Of a DNA stretch of 29,586 bases, positions 1-29,586 are shown piece after piece. Origin of the DNA: Gammaproteobacteria bacterium (GTDB lineage Bacteria > Pseudomonadota > Gammaproteobacteria > Steroidobacterales > Woeseiaceae); assembly GCA_013151645.1 (NCBI GenBank), contig JAADHU010000003.1, positions 1-29,586 on the forward strand. The letters are read 5' to 3'. The position numbers and the translations under genes were made by a program. The notes beneath the pieces are model-generated. The model did not search any database, was not told where the DNA came from, and was given only the letters and a program-made list of their open reading frames with translations. Within the stretch, counting starts at the first letter, position 1. Each line of letters starts with the position of its first letter.

Positions 1-47
1 GGGTTTTCTATTGGCACTCTCGCAGGAGCGTCTCCCGAGGCGCGACC
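1..47. repeat. Partial copy (right half) of the 84-bp palindromic intergenic repeat family seen in tandem at 23121-23500
   Basis: ttctattggcactctcgcaggagcgtctcccgaggcgcgacc aligns at roughly 80% with the unit segment ttgtcccattgccactcctgcaggagcgtgacctgacgcgcgacc. It lies just 3' of the DUF302 gene. Confidence 0.5.
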
Positions 48-92
48 CGCAATAATCAATCGAAGCGAAGAACCCAAACCCTGACAATTGTT

Positions 93-4405: not shown

Positions 4406-5842
4406 ATGAATGAAGTACTCAACATGACCTCCAGTTACGGCCTGAGCACCGGCGGCTGGATCGGCGTAGTTGTGGCTACGGTTGTTCTGTTCGCGATCTT
4501 TCTGGCCAAGGCGTTCCGCCGGGTCGTTGAACCGAACGAGGTGCATATCGTCCAGTCCCGAAAGACAACAACGATGTATGGCAAGAAGCTCGAAGAAGGC
4601 GAGACCGGCGTTTCGCCCGGCAACAGTTATTACGAGTGGCCACACTGGTGGCCGGTCATCGGTGTCCAGCGAATTATTCTCCCCCTGTCCGTTTTCGATC
4701 AAAAACTCACCAACTATGAAGCTTATGACATCGGCAAGGTGCCATTCGTCGTCGATGTCGTCGCATTTTTCCGCATTAACGATCCGACAATCGCTGCAAA
4801 ACGTATCCAGGATTTACACGAACTGAGGGCACAGTTGGAATCCATTCTGCAGGGTGCGGTGCGTACCATTTTGGCGAAGCATGAAATTGAAGACATCATG
4901 ATGGAACGCAGCACGTTCGGAAAAATGTTCACGGACGAGGTAGCGGACCAGCTCAAGGCCTGGGGCGTATCCAATGTCAAGAACATCGAACTGATGGATA
5001 TTCGCGACGGCATGAATTCTCAGACCGTTTCAAACATCATGGCAAAGAAGGAATCCGTGATCGACCGGGAATCTCGCGTGGTCGTAGCCGAAAACACGAA
5101 GCTCGCTGAGACCGCTGAAATTGAAGCCAAACAGGTGATCGATGTTCGTGCGCAGGAAGCCGAAGAACTGGTGGGTCTGAGAACCGCGCAGAAAGATCAG
5201 GCGGTGGGTATTGCCGATGAGAAGGCGCTCCAGGAAATCAAGACGCAGGCGAAGGAAACAGCCGAGCGCGACATGGCGGTCGAGTTGGTCAAGAACGTGC
5301 GTGCCGCCGAGATCAATCGTTCCGTGCAAGTGGTCAAGGCGGACGAGGATAAGCAGACCATAGTCATTCGGGCCGAGGGCCAGCGCCAGCAGGAAGTCAT
5401 TGACGCCGAAGCAACCAAACAGAAGACCATCATCGTTGCTGAAGGTGACCTGCAGGATTCCCTCAAGGAAGCTGAAGGCATTCTCGCGATCGGCACGTCG
5501 AGCGCGGAAGCCAAGCGACTGGAAGAGATGGCGACGGTTTCCCCGCAGATTGCATTGGCCGATGAAATCGGCAGCAACGACGGTTATCAGGAATACCTCA
5601 TCAAGATCCGGGACGTTGAAAAAGACGAAGCAGTGGGTATTGAACAGGCGAAGGCGCTACAGGATGCCGGCATCAAGGTCATTGTTAACTCAGGCAATGT
5701 CGAAAGCGGCATGAACAGTTTACTCGACGTGTTGACCACCAAAGGCGGCACCAATATCGCCGGCATGGTGGAAGCGATTCGTCAGACGGACGAAGGTTCG
5801 GCGCTGTTGAATCGCGTTGGGCTGGGTGACAGCAAAACGTAG
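4406..5842 (+). CDS. Flotillin-like SPFH/band-7 domain protein (YqiK-type)
   Basis: N-terminal TM helix, an SPFH domain, then a long Ala/Glu/Lys-rich coiled-coil region and a flotillin C-terminus. Start set at 4406, which follows an AGGAG RBS. Confidence 0.8.
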   Translation: MNEVLNMTSSYGLSTGGWIGVVVATVVLFAIFLAKAFRRVVEPNEVHIVQSRKTTTMYGKKLEEGETGVSPGNSYYEWPHWWPVIGVQRIILPLSVFDQKLTNYEAYDIGKVPFVVDVVAFFRINDPTIAAKRIQDLHELRAQLESILQGAVRTILAKHEIEDIMMERSTFGKMFTDEVADQLKAWGVSNVKNIELMDIRDGMNSQTVSNIMAKKESVIDRESRVVVAENTKLAETAEIEAKQVIDVRAQEAEELVGLRTAQKDQAVGIADEKALQEIKTQAKETAERDMAVELVKNVRAAEINRSVQVVKADEDKQTIVIRAEGQRQQEVIDAEATKQKTIIVAEGDLQDSLKEAEGILAIGTSSAEAKRLEEMATVSPQIALADEIGSNDGYQEYLIKIRDVEKDEAVGIEQAKALQDAGIKVIVNSGNVESGMNSLLDVLTTKGGTNIAGMVEAIRQTDEGSALLNRVGLGDSKT

Positions 5843-6032
5843 ACGGCAGAGATGTATGTTCATGGAGTGCCCGCCGAAACTTCAATGGGCCTGCGACCGA
5901 AGCGGGGTTGACCGGGCGAAAATCGGTCGCGACACCAGTCAACAGCAAACATCATGACGGCCATAACACAGCGATGAGAAAAACAGTGTTTACGCCGAGC
6001 GTGGCCGAGTACGCTGTAGCGGAATATTCGTT

Positions 6033-6197
6033 TAGGGAACCTCTGATCAATTCCGGGCGAAGCAGATTGCTTGTCAAAATATTCCGATTCAAGGCGCGGA
6101 TCGCACGTAATAGCGAGCTATTGCGAAGATTCGCAACGCCGAAGCTGGATATTTTGACACCTAAGATGCGAGTTCAGAATTGATCAGAGGTTCCTTA
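6033..6197. mobile_element. MITE-like element: 19-bp terminal inverted repeats (GGGAACCTCTGATCAATTC / GAATTGATCAGAGGTTCCT) flanked by TA on each side
   Basis: Left TIR is 6035-6053; right TIR is 6177-6195, whose reverse complement matches 18 of 19. TA dinucleotides at 6033-34 and 6196-97 fit a Tc1/IS630-type target duplication. There is an internal hairpin TTGCGAA-gat-TTCGCAA and no coding capacity. The right half recurs at 26891-26968. Confidence 0.45.
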
Positions 6198-6300
6198 GGT
6201 AGAACTACTTATATACGTCACTGACGGATCGCAAGAAACTGCTCGCTGTGAATTACGCCTGAATTATTCACAATCGACTTCCAAGAGCTAATGTCCGTTT

Positions 6301-8796
6301 ATGCCGTTTGTAATTCCGTCCGTATTGCGAAATACGTTTTCGTCGCGCAACAACCGGTGTCGCGATGCGTCCGGAATGCGAGCCGCGCCCGAGCTGGTGG
6401 TATTGGATGTCGTCGAAGGCGTTACACCGAGTCCCAAACCGCCCGTACGTATCTTCCTGGGTACTGAACCGGCTCACTATCGAGCCGAACGGATTTTTGT
6501 CTGGTCGATAGAACGCGTGCGTGATCCCGCCAGGGTTTATGAAATCCACCTCATGAAAGAACTCGCTGGTTTCGATCGGCGCCGGTGGCTTACAGGATTT
6601 ACCAACTACCGTTTTGCCATTCCGCATTTCGCACAGGGTAGCGGCCGCGCGATATGGAATGATGTCGATCAGGCTTACCTCGCCGATCCGGCTGAATTGT
6701 TCGATACGGACATGGGTGAATGCGGCCTCCTCACCGTGCCGCCGCTTTCTTCAAGTGCATTGCTGGATACGGCGGTGATGTTGATCGATTGCGAGCGAAT
6801 GGCATCGATCTGGACCGGCGATGAAGCCAAGCATGGGCGCAAGAACAATTTACTGGCAAAGGTACAGGCCAGACCCGGCTTACGTGGCGATCTGCCCGGC
6901 GAATGGAACGCACGCGACGAGGAGTATGTACCGGGCCGCTCGAAACTGCTGCACTGGACCATTCTGCATACGCAACCCTGGCATCCGCTTCCACAAGCTT
7001 TCGTCTACCAGCGCAATCCAGTCGGTCACGTTTGGTACGACATGGAGCGTTCCGCCAATCTTGCCGGATATCACGTCTTCACCGCCGACAAACCCAGCGC
7101 CCAGTTCAAAAGCCTGCTCACGCGGATTCAAGCCGGCGTGACGGACGGAAAGAACGACAGACGACTGGGTGATCACCCGCCTGCACCAACGACCAAAATC
7201 GAAGGCCTGGACAGCCTGATCGAGAAAACCGCATCGAAGAGCCTTCTCGATTATTGCTTCGCCGATGTCGCGGTCGAACACTCCGCACTGAACGAATTGC
7301 TAACCGAACAAGATGGCATCGCTGTAACGCGATACGACCCTGCCGATCCATCTTACAACGCAAGGCCCACGGCCGGTTTCGATGGCGTCGTTTGTGCAGA
7401 TGCATTGAACTACATTCCGGATGAAGACATACCGTGGGTAATCAACGATCTGTTCGAATGCGCGAAGCAGTTCGTCTATGTGGCCATCGAGCATTCGTCC
7501 CGCGGCAAGATGCTGGCTGACGGAACCTCGTTGTGCTCTCGGCAGCGCGAACCGGCCTGGTGGAAGGCCGCGTTCGAGAGCGCGGCCGAACGCCATCCGC
7601 AGATACAGTGGAAACTCGTTTTCAACCAACCCGCCGACGCGGGAGCCCCGGCTCTGCGTGAGATCGGCTGGAGTGGCGATCAATTGCCCAGAGTGTGGGT
7701 GCTTAACGACAATGTCAGCGTGGACACATCTCAGTCCACCGCCCTGGCCGAAGCGCTCGGCTGGCCATTCGAAGTTGTCGATTCGCCGTTTGACTCCCGC
7801 CGCGAACGACCGGACCTGGTCATCGCCGCAAACCAGCACACCGGTTCCTGGGCGCGCCGGCTTTGTCGGCAAAGTGGCGGACGTACGCGTTGCGTACGAA
7901 TAGACGGCACGGGAGGGGCCGTTGCCAAAGACTTTGACGCAGTAGTCAGTCCGGCCTATTTCCACCTTCCGCCGCATCCGCATCGCATTGAAAGCGTGAC
8001 GCAACTGACTCGAATTACCCCGGAACGACTGGCCAGAGCACGTGACCGATGCCCACGGCTGTTCGGGCTCGCACCCCATCCACGGATTGTTGTCTTGCTC
8101 GGTGCCAGCGAGAGCAGCGGTCCTCCGGACACGATCACGAGCCGTAGACTGGGCGAAGAAATTCGTACGTTCGCGACCCTGGCGGGCGGATCTGTTTTTG
8201 CACTGATCAGCCGTCGTATCACACCGGGGCTCGCCGGGGCACTTGTAGCGGGCCTGGGTGAATCTCCCCATGTGCATACCTGGTCGCCAGACCATCGCGA
8301 CGACGATACCTATCTTGCCTATCTGGAACTGGCCGACACCATCATCGTTACGGGAGATGATGAATTCCTGATGGCCGATGCCGCGGCCACCGGAAAGTCC
8401 GTTTACGTCTACCCTCTGGCCGAGCGCCCGGCAAACCTCTCAAGCCGTTTCCGGGAAACCGTGTTTGCCCGTTCCCAGGCTCGTCCGTTAAACAAACGCG
8501 GCACAGTCAGACCCCAACAAGGTCTGGAGTACTTTTGTGCACGGCTTATCGAACGTGGCATCGTCCTGCCGCCTCACGATCTGAACGCATTGCGCCAGTC
8601 CCTTGTACGGCTCGGCGTTATTCATCAATTCGGTACGTCGATGACGGCGACAAGCCCGCACGCCGGCTTGCGAGTAGCGCACGATGCGGCTCGTCAAGTT
8701 CAGCGATTACTCGGTCTCGGGGAGCATGCCCGACTACCGCAAAACGACCTTGTCCACACAACAGACTGGACACAACACGTGGCGGCACATCCGTAA
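6301..8796 (+). CDS. Large tri-domain protein: N-terminal GT8-type glycosyltransferase, central methyltransferase-like region, C-terminal ELM1 (PF06258, mitochondrial-fission ELM1-like) domain
   Basis: GT8 signatures are TNYRFAIPHF, AIWNDVDQAYLADPAELFD (DxD) and LHWTILHTQPWHP. The middle region has FDGVVCADALNYIPDEDIPWVINDLFECAKQFVYVAIEH, which resembles methyltransferase motifs II-III without a clear GxGxG. ELM1-like blocks are ALAEALGWPFEVV, PDLVIAANQHTGSWARRL, DFDAVVSPAYFHL, ALISRRITPGL and ADTIIVTGDDEFLMADAAATGKSVYV. The start is uncertain between 6301 and 6376. Confidence 0.7.
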   Translation: MPFVIPSVLRNTFSSRNNRCRDASGMRAAPELVVLDVVEGVTPSPKPPVRIFLGTEPAHYRAERIFVWSIERVRDPARVYEIHLMKELAGFDRRRWLTGFTNYRFAIPHFAQGSGRAIWNDVDQAYLADPAELFDTDMGECGLLTVPPLSSSALLDTAVMLIDCERMASIWTGDEAKHGRKNNLLAKVQARPGLRGDLPGEWNARDEEYVPGRSKLLHWTILHTQPWHPLPQAFVYQRNPVGHVWYDMERSANLAGYHVFTADKPSAQFKSLLTRIQAGVTDGKNDRRLGDHPPAPTTKIEGLDSLIEKTASKSLLDYCFADVAVEHSALNELLTEQDGIAVTRYDPADPSYNARPTAGFDGVVCADALNYIPDEDIPWVINDLFECAKQFVYVAIEHSSRGKMLADGTSLCSRQREPAWWKAAFESAAERHPQIQWKLVFNQPADAGAPALREIGWSGDQLPRVWVLNDNVSVDTSQSTALAEALGWPFEVVDSPFDSRRERPDLVIAANQHTGSWARRLCRQSGGRTRCVRIDGTGGAVAKDFDAVVSPAYFHLPPHPHRIESVTQLTRITPERLARARDRCPRLFGLAPHPRIVVLLGASESSGPPDTITSRRLGEEIRTFATLAGGSVFALISRRITPGLAGALVAGLGESPHVHTWSPDHRDDDTYLAYLELADTIIVTGDDEFLMADAAATGKSVYVYPLAERPANLSSRFRETVFARSQARPLNKRGTVRPQQGLEYFCARLIERGIVLPPHDLNALRQSLVRLGVIHQFGTSMTATSPHAGLRVAHDAARQVQRLLGLGEHARLPQNDLVHTTDWTQHVAAHP

Positions 8797-14290: not shown

Positions 14291-14367
14291 GGTGGTGAAG
14301 GGTGGATTTGAACCACCGACCTACGGGTTATGAGTCCGTCGCTCTAACCAACTGAGCTACATCACCG
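14291..14367 (-). tRNA. tRNA-Met (anticodon CAU), elongator type
   Basis: Minus-strand sequence GGTGATGTAGCTCAGTTGGTTAGAGCGACGGACTCATAACCCGTAGGTCGGTGGTTCAAATCCACCCTTCACCACCA. D-arm is identical to E. coli elongator tRNA-Met. The anticodon loop is CTCATAA. G1-C72 pairs, so this is not an initiator. tRNA-Ile2 (LAU) cannot be fully excluded. Confidence 0.85.
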
Positions 14368-18133: not shown

Positions 18134-18208
18134 CTGGCTGGGGTGGCAGGGATCGAACCTGCGAATGACGGGATCAAAACCCGCTGCCTTACCACTTGGC
18201 TACACCCC
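18134..18208 (-). tRNA. tRNA-Gln (anticodon UUG)
   Basis: Minus-strand sequence TGGGGTGTAGCCAAGTGGTAAGGCAGCGGGTTTTGATCCCGTCATTCGCAGGTTCGATCCCTGCCACCCCAGCCA, close to E. coli tRNA-Gln1. The anticodon loop is TTTTGAT. Confidence 0.9.
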
Positions 18209-18326
18209 AATCGTCTGCTCCGCGTCACCAATGGCGAGAAAATGAGCTCCTGTGTCGCGCGCAATTGTGCGGTTCGACAACGGACGTGTCAATCGGATTT
18301 CAATTCGGACGGGAACCCGGTCCGGG

Positions 18327-23120: not shown

Positions 23121-23500
23121 CGACGCACGACCGGGCTCAAGAGGATCGCGTCTCAGGTGACGCTCCTACAGTTTGTCCCATTGCCACTCCTGCAGGAGCG
23201 TGACCTGACGCGCGACCAAGCTCAAGAGGTCGCCTCTCAGGTGACGCTCCTACAGTTTGTCCCATTGCCACTCCTGCAGGAGCGTGACCTGACACACGAC
23301 CGGGCTCAAGAGGATAGCCTCTCAGGTGACGCTCCTACAATTATTCTACTGGCACTCCTGTAGGAGCGTGACCTGACGCGCGACCAGGCTCAAGAGGTCG
23401 CCTCTCAGGTGACGCCCCTACAGTTTGTCCCATTGCCACTCCTGTAGGAGCGTGACCTGACGCGCGACCAGGCTCAAGAGGATCGCCTCTCAGGTGACGC
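23121..23500. repeat. Tandem array of about 4.5 copies of an 84-86-bp palindromic repeat unit, each containing a roughly 19-bp-stem hairpin
   Basis: Units begin at 23121, 23207, 23291, 23375 and 23459. Each has TCAGGTGACGCTCCTACAG - 18-22-nt loop - CTG(C/T)AGGAGCGTGACCTGA plus a small AGAGG-tcg-CCTCT hairpin. Units are over 90% identical with no unique spacers. The array lies between the convergent prfA and CBS gene ends. Confidence 0.85.
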
Positions 23501-23521
23501 TTACGATCGTTACCGGCTTGC

Positions 23522-24958: not shown

Positions 24959-25819
24959 ATGGCGATTAACATAGAATCCGCATTGGTAAGTGCGACCCGG
25001 GCGTTACAGGGCGTGAGCGACTCGCCGCGTCTCGATGCCGAGTTGTTGTTGATGTTCGTGCTGGAAGTACCGAGAAGCCACCTGTTTGCGCACCCGGACA
25101 GGGAACTGGACAGGAGGGATGATGCCCGACTACGGTCATTGCTTGAACGCCGGCTCAAACACGAACCGGTCGCGTATCTGACCGGCGAAAAAGAATTCTG
25201 GTCGTTGTCGCTGCAGGTCACCCCGGCGACGCTCGTTCCTCGCCCTGAAACCGAACGGCTGGTGGAAGCGGCGCTGACGCTCATTCAGCCGAATGCGAAC
25301 GTAGCTGTTCTTGACCTGGGCACCGGCAGCGGCGCCATCGCGATTGCCATTTCGAGCGAGCGTCCGCAATGCCACATCGTAGCCACGGATCGTAGTGCGT
25401 CGGCATTGAGCGTTGCGACCGCTAACGCCGTACGGCACGAACTGACCAACATATCGTTTCAACAAGGCGACTGGCTGGAAGCGGTGGCCGGCGAAACCTT
25501 CGATATTATCGTTTCCAACCCCCCTTACATTGCCAGCGACGACACGGCACTCGCACAACTGCCCTGCGAACCACGAAGCGCGCTAGCCTCCGGCAAACAC
25601 GGCCTGGACGCCATTCGCCGTATCGCTGCTGACTCAGGCCGTCACCTCGTCAGCGGCGGCACCCTGCTCCTCGAACATGGCGCCGACCAGCAAGAATCGG
25701 TCGCACGAATTCTGGCGGGGCAGAATTGGCGGAATATTCAATGCCTGTCCGATCTGTGCGGCCTGCCGCGCGTAACGCGTGCTATGTGGCAATCGCCCGG
25801 AGAATCAGAGGTTCCCTAA
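24959..25819 (+). CDS. prmC: Release factor glutamine N5-methyltransferase PrmC (HemK)
   Basis: NPPY motif (IVSNPPYIA), SAM-binding VLDLGTGSGAIAIA, and a HemK N-terminal domain. Confidence 0.9.
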   Translation: MAINIESALVSATRALQGVSDSPRLDAELLLMFVLEVPRSHLFAHPDRELDRRDDARLRSLLERRLKHEPVAYLTGEKEFWSLSLQVTPATLVPRPETERLVEAALTLIQPNANVAVLDLGTGSGAIAIAISSERPQCHIVATDRSASALSVATANAVRHELTNISFQQGDWLEAVAGETFDIIVSNPPYIASDDTALAQLPCEPRSALASGKHGLDAIRRIAADSGRHLVSGGTLLLEHGADQQESVARILAGQNWRNIQCLSDLCGLPRVTRAMWQSPGESEVP

Positions 25820-26775: not shown

Positions 26776-26890
26776 TGAGTTACTCCTGCAAATTTACTGA
26801 AAAGAATTCCGCCGATCAATCGCGCAACTGTTGATCGGCTCTTAGCAGGAGACCCTGACGATCAGTCGATTATTTCACCGGGTCCGGCTG

Positions 26891-26968
26891 TTGCGAAGAT
26901 TCGCAACGCCGAAGCTGGATATTTTCAAAGGCAGGATGCGAGTTCAGAATTAATCAGAGGTTCCCTAG
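26891..26968. repeat. Partial (right-half) copy of the MITE-like element of 6033-6197, ending in a TIR plus TA that overlaps the stop codon of the 26965-28125 gene
   Basis: 78 nt align at about 88% to 6121-6198, including the internal hairpin TTGCGAA-gat-TTCGCAA and the TIR GAATTAATCAGAGGTTCCC followed by TA. Confidence 0.45.
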
Positions 26969-29513: not shown

Positions 29514-29544
29514 CCTATTCGCTGAACGCGAATCGGGTCGCGCC

Positions 29545-29586
29545 TCGGGAGATGCTCCTACAGTCTTTCTATCGGCACCCCTCCTG
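29545..29586. repeat. Partial copy (left half plus loop) of the 84-bp palindromic repeat family, at the 3' end of moeB
   Basis: cgcctcgggagatgctcctacagtctttctatcggcacccctcctg aligns with the unit segment cgcctctcaggtgacgctcctacagtttgtcccattgccactcctg. Confidence 0.5.

Follow-up and report, generated by a model that had tools for sequence, protein, structure and literature searches.

What is the near-palindromic sequence that lies between a flotillin-like gene and a glycosyltransferase-like gene in this gammaproteobacterial contig, and which machinery placed it there? The stretch of DNA analysed (29,586 nucleotides in all, hereafter the window) comes from a MAG whose relatives are labelled Woeseiaceae. 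It is ordinary core chromosome, carrying prs, pth, ychF, the L25 gene, lolB, hemA, prfA and prmC, and neither domain searches of its genes nor tblastn found a transposase or recombinase gene within it. The sequence in question occupies part of a 458-bp spacer, with the flotillin-like Band_7 gene upstream (4406-5842) and an ELM1-type glycosyltransferase gene downstream (6301-8796), and it ends 106 bp before the latter. A sequence-only reading had described it as a 165-bp MITE of the IS630 or Tc1/mariner type, sitting upstream of a “tri-domain” glycosyltransferase gene for which it might provide a promoter. A glycosyltransferase-like gene is indeed found there, but its 831-aa product gives a single Pfam match, Mito_fiss_Elm1 (PF06258, residues 477-733), the remaining two thirds of the protein matching no Pfam family at E ≤ 0.001. 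Look-ups of the exact glycosyltransferase and DUF3179 protein sequences returned nothing on record.

We first define the element itself. A repeat finder places its two arms at 6033-6053 and 6177-6197 (21 nt each, 95% complementary) and detects a second, inner pair of arms at 6072-6090 and 6141-6159. Direct reading of the sequence and a table of flanks show a 4-bp direct repeat, TTAG, at both edges (6032-6035 and 6195-6198), the locus reading ...ATATTCGT-TTAG-GGAACCTCTGATCAATTC...GAATTGATCAGAGGTTCC-TTAG-GTAGAAC.... Between these two copies of TTAG lies an element of 159 bp (6036-6194, + strand) devoid of coding capacity, the terminal inverted repeats (TIRs) of which are perfect: GGAACCTCTGATCAATTC at 6036-6053 on the + strand and its reverse complement at 6177-6194 on the - strand match at 18/18 positions. 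Thus, the inverted repeat was correctly located by the sequence-only reading but its extent was not, and the 19-bp arms with 18 matches that it reported are present but include a base that belongs to TTAG; when the same bases are parsed with a 4-bp repeat, the single mismatch vanishes. The right TIR is supported by both the repeat finder and a scan with the 18-mer GGAACCTCTGATCAATTC, which at up to 3 mismatches occurs 3 times in the window against 0.07 expected from shuffles. Given this enrichment, the complementarity of the arms and the z-score of the hairpin described below, the inverted repeat is real and not a chance observation. The inner hairpin stem extends from 6072 to 6159 (+ strand), as indicated by the repeat finder, the minimum-free-energy fold and compensatory changes in 14 copies, and is capped by a small perfect hairpin, AATAGC-GA-GCTATT (6109-6122), which had been noticed from the sequence. 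The same reading had dismissed the ORF that runs across the element (5908-6183) as spurious, and rightly so: it has no Pfam match, and the inverted allele of a close relative (see below) has no spanning ORF of 110 codons or more. This ORF should not be annotated as a gene.

The four bases at each edge bear directly on the family of the element. The sequence-only reading took the TA on both flanks as the target-site duplication; on this view, an IS630/Tc1-mariner transposase mobilised a MITE that has one mismatch in its 19-bp TIRs and is flanked by duplicated TA. TA does adjoin both arms, and a central TA is found at most insertion sites of related elements. To look at many insertions at once, a 15-nt TIR pattern, GGAACCTCTGATYAA, was scanned against species-representative genomes (a 596-Gb collection), yielding at least 120 stretches. 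Among the matches listed, GGAACCTCTGATYAA is usually preceded by TTAA, TTAG, CTAA or CTAG, and its inverted partner is often 100-335 bp or about 1150-1240 bp away. Flanks were then counted over 65 paired elements among these matches, with shuffling of partners (2000 shuffles) as the null. Perfect 4-bp direct flanks are seen in 34 of the 65, against 8.7 expected and a shuffle maximum of 18. The perfect duplications are TTAA (11), TTAG (10), CTAA (5) and CTAG (3), with CTTA, TATA, TTTG, CAAG and TTCA found once each, and their consensus is YTAR, which accounts for the frequent central TA. Only non-palindromic flanks can separate a 4-bp from a TA duplication, and these are direct repeats in 19 cases versus inverted repeats in 3. 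Moreover, the central TA is missing from CTTA, TTTG, CAAG and TTCA, the last three of which contain no TA at all. A YTAR motif with a 4-bp duplication is what has been reported for the target of IS5 (PMC5009759). Because the duplications are 4 bp long and of the YTAR type reported for IS5, in some cases without TA, we reject the TA reading: TA is there on both sides, but what was duplicated is TTAG. Within the MITE subfamily of the window element, the 10 copies comprise 3 with a perfect 4-bp duplication, 5 with a 3/4 match, 1 with inverted flanks (CCAG/CTGG) and 1 with none.

Flanks of the CCAG/CTGG kind recur elsewhere. The arrangement CCAG|GGAACC...GGTTCC|CTGG was observed in L031 (1753-2276) and L129 (2210-2368), and also in L080, L085 and L045. 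These flanks are inverted repeats, with CCWGG at both ends, and are unexplained by a model of 4-bp duplication.

Full-length elements bearing the same terminus identify the transposase family. Long elements with GGAACCTCTGATYAA ends are present in L021, L022, L103 and L113, and in degraded form in L091 and L065. They measure 1154-1241 bp, are flanked by 4-bp duplications (CTTA in L021, TATA in L022, TTTG in L103 and TTAG in L065; the TTAG entered for L091 in the flank table is CTAA in the orientation of the element) and contain one ORF of about 315-330 aa. The ORFs of L021 and L113, the two scored by profile, reach 343 and 314 bits against the NCBIfam model NF033581 (IS5 family transposase), for which the cut-off is 140, and also match Pfam DDE_Tnp_1 and DUF772. 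The ORF of L022 is 99.7% identical to that of L021, and that of L103 is tied to the L021 protein by tblastn alone, at 76% identity. Among the matches listed, all readable full-length partners therefore encode IS5-family DDE transposases, and none is IS630-like. The cognate IS630/Tc1 element with matching TIRs that the sequence-only reading anticipated was not encountered among the at least 120 loci listed, where it is IS5-family elements that carry this TIR. The closest annotated relatives in plasmid records are likewise IS5-family and IS1021-type transposases, in elements ending in GGAAACGCTGAT and GGATGCTCTGAT; a 4-bp duplication, CTAT, is clear for the IS1021-like element, and the other plasmid relative has flanks compatible with one of 4 bp.

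Taken together, these data leave mobilisation by an IS630/Tc1-mariner transposase extremely unlikely. What speaks for it is the TA next to both arms, the central TA at most sites and the element-free allele of a related strain described below, which fits both parses. What speaks against it is that a TIR extended by the outer base has a mismatch, which the 4-bp parse removes, that the non-palindromic flanks of the paired elements are mostly direct 4-bp repeats, some without TA, and that no IS630 partner appears among the matches listed. The length of the flanking repeats, 4 bp and not a TA dinucleotide, points in the same direction, and the TIR shared with IS5-family DDE elements, together with the 4-bp duplication at YTAR, marks the window element as an IS5-group derivative.

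We therefore consider it very probable that the element is a 159-bp non-autonomous MITE, its 18-bp TIRs being the ends of a widespread clade of IS5-group elements, and that it was mobilised by an IS5-group transposase with duplication of TTAG. It combines the features expected of a MITE: a length of 159 bp (MITEs measure about 50-1000 bp) without a transposase gene, TIRs and a target-site duplication. An IS5-group DDE transposase acting in trans, encoded elsewhere in the genome or by a past resident, would have bound both ends and put the element into a TTAG (YTAR) target in the spacer between the Band_7 and glycosyltransferase genes; staggered cleavage followed by repair would then have duplicated TTAG. 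We infer this trans-mobilisation for the present lineage. The full-length elements with the TIR of the MITE belong to other phyla and have about the first 15-16 bp in common with it (up to 15-18), and tblastn with the L021 transposase gave no match in the window or in loci L121-L135. For annotation, the feature is best labelled as a MITE of the IS5 type, rather than the IS630 type, with TTAG as its target duplication.

More broadly, GGAACCTCTGATYAA is the terminal signature of a widespread IS5-group clade that has given rise to short MITEs with differing interiors in Gammaproteobacteria, Betaproteobacteria, Acidobacteriota, Binatia, Bacillota and others. Full-length elements with this IS5-type terminus were seen in Latescibacterota and Cyanobacteria; in Acidobacteriota, Betaproteobacteria, Binatia and Bacillota it bounds MITEs whose interiors are unrelated. 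Elements of 151-153 bp, mostly from Gammaproteobacteria, make up a MITE subfamily of their own (L012, L042, L083, L115, L120 and L046, with ends only in L002, L058 and L088). Its TIR is followed directly by its own complement (GGAACCTCTGATTAAGTCAGAGGTTCC), forming a terminal mini-hairpin.

A MITE is expected to be dispersed in multiple copies, and further copies were indeed found, as the sequence-only reading had proposed checking. Within the window, a half copy corresponding to the right arm lies at 26887-26964 (+ strand); it is 89.7% identical, and the similarity ends at the apex of the hairpin. Full element and half copy are the copies seen in the element's own genome, on one contig. The TIR of the half copy adjoins the TAG stop codon of a DUF819 gene, the target CTAG (26965-26968) containing this stop codon, and in a related species (L139, DUF3179 protein 87% identical) the sequence stays homologous past the DUF819 stop precisely as far as the outer edge of the TIR. 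One contig of a Woeseiaceae MAG (L055) starts inside a 90% identical copy, and when metagenome contigs were scanned for a 23-mer specific to the subfamily, eight of them (L128-L135) were retrieved, with nine full-length copies (150-159 bp, 78-91% identity) and one lone end. L055 and L128-L135 together thus provide ten further full or nearly full copies at 78-91% identity, on Woeseiaceae-like contigs. More distant full-length relatives, at about 69-75% identity, are found in four MAGs (L038, L096, L066 and L024), of which three are labelled Proteobacteria or Gammaproteobacteria and one Thiotrichales. A blastn search of the element against a plasmid collection gave no match. One short metagenome contig, L132, holds two copies of the MITE subfamily (173-331 and 416-574) in equal orientation, 84 bp apart.

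Two assemblies break within the element, L121 at its end and L055 at its start, as repeats typically cause assembly breaks; the element thus accounts for contig breaks in related assemblies.

Since YTAR contains TAA or TAG, these elements often sit directly past stop codons without disrupting a gene. The coincidence of target and stop codon directs insertions to positions just beyond genes, which are left unbroken. Besides the half copy after the TAG of DUF819, we observed copies 1 bp (L135) and 11 bp (L055) away from an ORF end. An isolated TIR end of 12 nt, ATCAGAGGTTCC, followed by CTAA, is present at 25804-25819 (+ strand) and matches the left end of the element plus its flank at 16/16 positions. 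It codes for the last PrmC codons and the stop, and its CTAA also contains the stop codon of the DUF3179 gene, which is convergent with prmC (4-bp overlap). At the matching position L139 reads TTAGCGGGTCCCTGAC, a 9/12 match to the TIR. This end is either the remnant of an old insertion that is now coding or a coincidence.

We then asked whether the insertion site itself varies among close relatives. An allele without the element is found in L138, a contig from run ERR2639424 whose flotillin is 99% identical in protein and whose flanks are about 95% identical. It reads ...GAATTACTTCC-TTAG-GTAGAACTACC... (in a longer reading, ...AGTACGCTGTCCCCGAATTACTTCC-TTAG-GTAGAACTACC...), that is, a single TTAG followed by the right flank of the window. 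The empty site looked for in a related strain therefore exists, and presence and absence of the element are polymorphic at an orthologous position. The site is imperfect: identity falls to about 77% over the 30 nt to its left, and farther left L138 has an additional stretch of about 90 nt. This difference may have been caused by a deletion beside the MITE in the lineage of the window. The extra nucleotides (within 1672-1791 of L138) fold well and match no other sequence compared. Loci L123-L127, with flotillins 93% and 87% identical, had been considered as further empty sites and were dropped, their downstream regions not being syntenic.

A third allele is provided by L122 (GCA_024276555.1), in which the surrounding DNA is about 98-99% identical and the downstream sequence 98.7% identical to the window. 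Here, an element at the equal site, with the same TTAG flanks and TIRs (7631-7789, against 6036-6194 in the window), has its interior reverse-complemented: the two elements are 96.9% identical when one is taken as the reverse complement and 69.8% in equal orientation. Differences between the two copies number 5 in 159 positions, and those between their immediate flanks 5 in 299 (Fisher p = 0.33); other copies of the family differ by 9-22%. Because the two copies differ no more than their flanks do, and far less than other copies, inversion in place is a simpler account than two insertions, and we infer that the orientation difference arose by inversion between the TIRs. IS5-type elements are known for insertion hot spots, and independent re-insertion into one and the same tetranucleotide was considered; it is less likely in view of the 5/159 differences. 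An assembly artefact is also an unlikely source of the inverted allele, the longest exact word common to the element and its own reverse complement being 18 nt, which should be shorter than the k-mers usually used by assemblers. Absent, forward and inverted, the three alleles at one site in close strains form a natural example of MITE turnover and in-place inversion.

The palindromic nature of the element extends to its predicted fold. On the + strand, it folds as one long hairpin of -86 kcal/mol (z = -11.2; 0 of 200 shuffles are as stable), and the fold on the other strand has -68.7 kcal/mol. An alignment of 14 copies, about 65-97% identical, gives a consensus fold of 52 pairs in which 94.6% of cells are paired. 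Both sides have changed in 24 of the 52 pairs; shuffles give 8.1 ± 2.1 such pairs, and sliding the partners by 1-3 columns gives 5-12. The foldback is thus kept up well beyond the TIRs through compensatory changes, which may reflect a requirement of transposition, RNA stability or homogenisation between the arms. In one orientation, G-U pairs are more frequent than A-C mismatches (69 against 17), a count biased by the prediction of the structure on that strand and owing most of its excess to four inherited positions; it is a hint, to be taken as a lead only, that one RNA strand is favoured.

Such a fold raises the question of whether the element is a structured RNA, be it a hairpin that stabilises or processes mRNA or a small RNA, which is no longer mobile and owes its conservation to its fold. 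The compensatory changes support this strongly as far as the fold is concerned, and the G-U count, with its strand bias, leans the same way. Against it, Rfam gives no match in 5850-6320 even at E = 1, the T tract of a terminator is not found, either orientation occurs at one locus, and TIRs, duplications and presence/absence polymorphism indicate a transposon origin. As a replacement for the MITE reading, we regard the structured RNA as very unlikely; an RNA role could exist alongside a MITE, not instead of one. At gathering thresholds, the only Rfam matches in the window are two tRNA genes on the minus strand (14293-14366 and 18138-18209).

Does the element, in either orientation, control the gene downstream? 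The proposal that the glycosyltransferase gene receives a promoter from it finds no support: neither a sigma-70-like promoter nor an intrinsic terminator was found in 5700-6500, and near-identical strains carry both orientations at the site. Each arm contains an outward TTGACA about 40 bp from its end, with no acceptable -10 hexamer after it. As the element is a near-palindrome, both orientations present nearly equal bases, TTGACA included, to the downstream gene. Any effect on neighbouring genes is probably small. The same observations bear on an inverton, a 123-bp segment between inverted repeats that would be flipped by a recombinase and control the glycosyltransferase gene 106 bp downstream. 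Opposite interior orientations at one site, in two strains with 98-99% identical flanks, are what such a switch would produce, and the RNAs of the two strands differ in stability (-86 vs -68.7 kcal/mol). Nevertheless, this explanation is highly improbable. Both orientations occur at one locus, but no recombinase or invertase gene was found in the window and no orientation-dependent signal either: TTGACA stands at equal distance from the gene either way, and 5700-6500 lacks a recognisable promoter-like site. Furthermore, the repeat is dispersed, has IS5 ends and is flanked by target duplications, and in-place inversion has been reported for the Correia elements, which are MITEs (Elbeyioglu 2017, as cited in PMC10969869).

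A variant that dispenses with a recombinase can be envisaged, in which the MITE would itself be a self-contained invertible cassette, flipping when its 18-bp TIRs recombine or the template is switched between them, and thereby altering read-through or transcript stability between the flotillin-like and glycosyltransferase genes. The reason for supposing such an alteration is the difference in folding energy between the RNAs of the two strands. We hold this to be improbable; if true, it would constitute recombinase-independent phase variation in an uncultured marine lineage.

How does this IS5-derived MITE compare with known systems? As in the IS5 group of the IS5 family (IS5 of E. coli and IS1021 of Ralstonia), its ends start with GG, its duplication is a 4-bp YTAR as for IS5 (PMC5009759), and the full-length elements with its terminus measure 1.15-1.24 kb and contain one ORF of about 315-330 aa for a DDE transposase that matches NF033581. 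Related ends, GGAAACGCTGAT and GGATGCTCTGAT, are found in the IS1021-like and Rhodanobacter elements. Unlike an IS5-group IS, the window element is 159 bp long without transposase and has the terminal 15-18 bp alone in common with the full-length elements. MITEs linked to IS5 elements have been described, namely BrickBuilt, MITE293 and MITE700 of Porphyromonas gingivalis and ATR of Neisseria, the latter linked to ISNme1 (PMC4596501). Like the window element, these are short and non-coding, are assigned to an IS5-family partner by TIR match and contain no transposase remnant (PMC4596501). Unlike it, they have an unrelated TIR (GAGACCTTTGCA) and duplications that vary in length, in contrast to the consistent 4-bp YTAR and nearly complete foldback of the family studied here. 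The element is therefore a new member of an already described class, IS5-related MITEs, and its TIR string is absent from the searchable literature, a search for which returned only unrelated primer sequences.

The Correia elements (CREE) of Neisseria are similar in being about 100-160 bp long and intergenic, with long TIRs and a hairpin-forming transcript. They have a TA duplication, promoters and an IHF site; in the window element, by contrast, no promoter was found, and no sequence similarity between the two is known. The difference between the window and L122 is most simply read as an in-place inversion, such as has been reported for Correia elements. ERIC/IRU and related enterobacterial repeats are imperfect palindromes of about 127-160 bp that lie in intergenic or 3' untranslated regions in either orientation and form long RNA hairpins. 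By this description, the window element is like them as a palindromic intergenic sequence with a long hairpin that occurs in either orientation; it is not expected to be related to them in sequence, and it differs in that its family is clearly connected to a family of transposases and has a target duplication of defined form.

A second repeat family, unrelated to the MITE, was observed in the window. It consists of a tandem array at 23122-23501 (period 84, 4.5 copies, 88% matches), between prfA and a PALP/CBS-domain gene, the unit of which contains two motifs of about 28 nt (CTGTAGGAGCGTCACC...) in opposite orientation and resembles REP/BIME clusters. Single copies, in inverted orientation, lie at both ends of the window (24-49 and 29534-29569), and the contig therefore probably breaks at a REP/BIME-like repeat.
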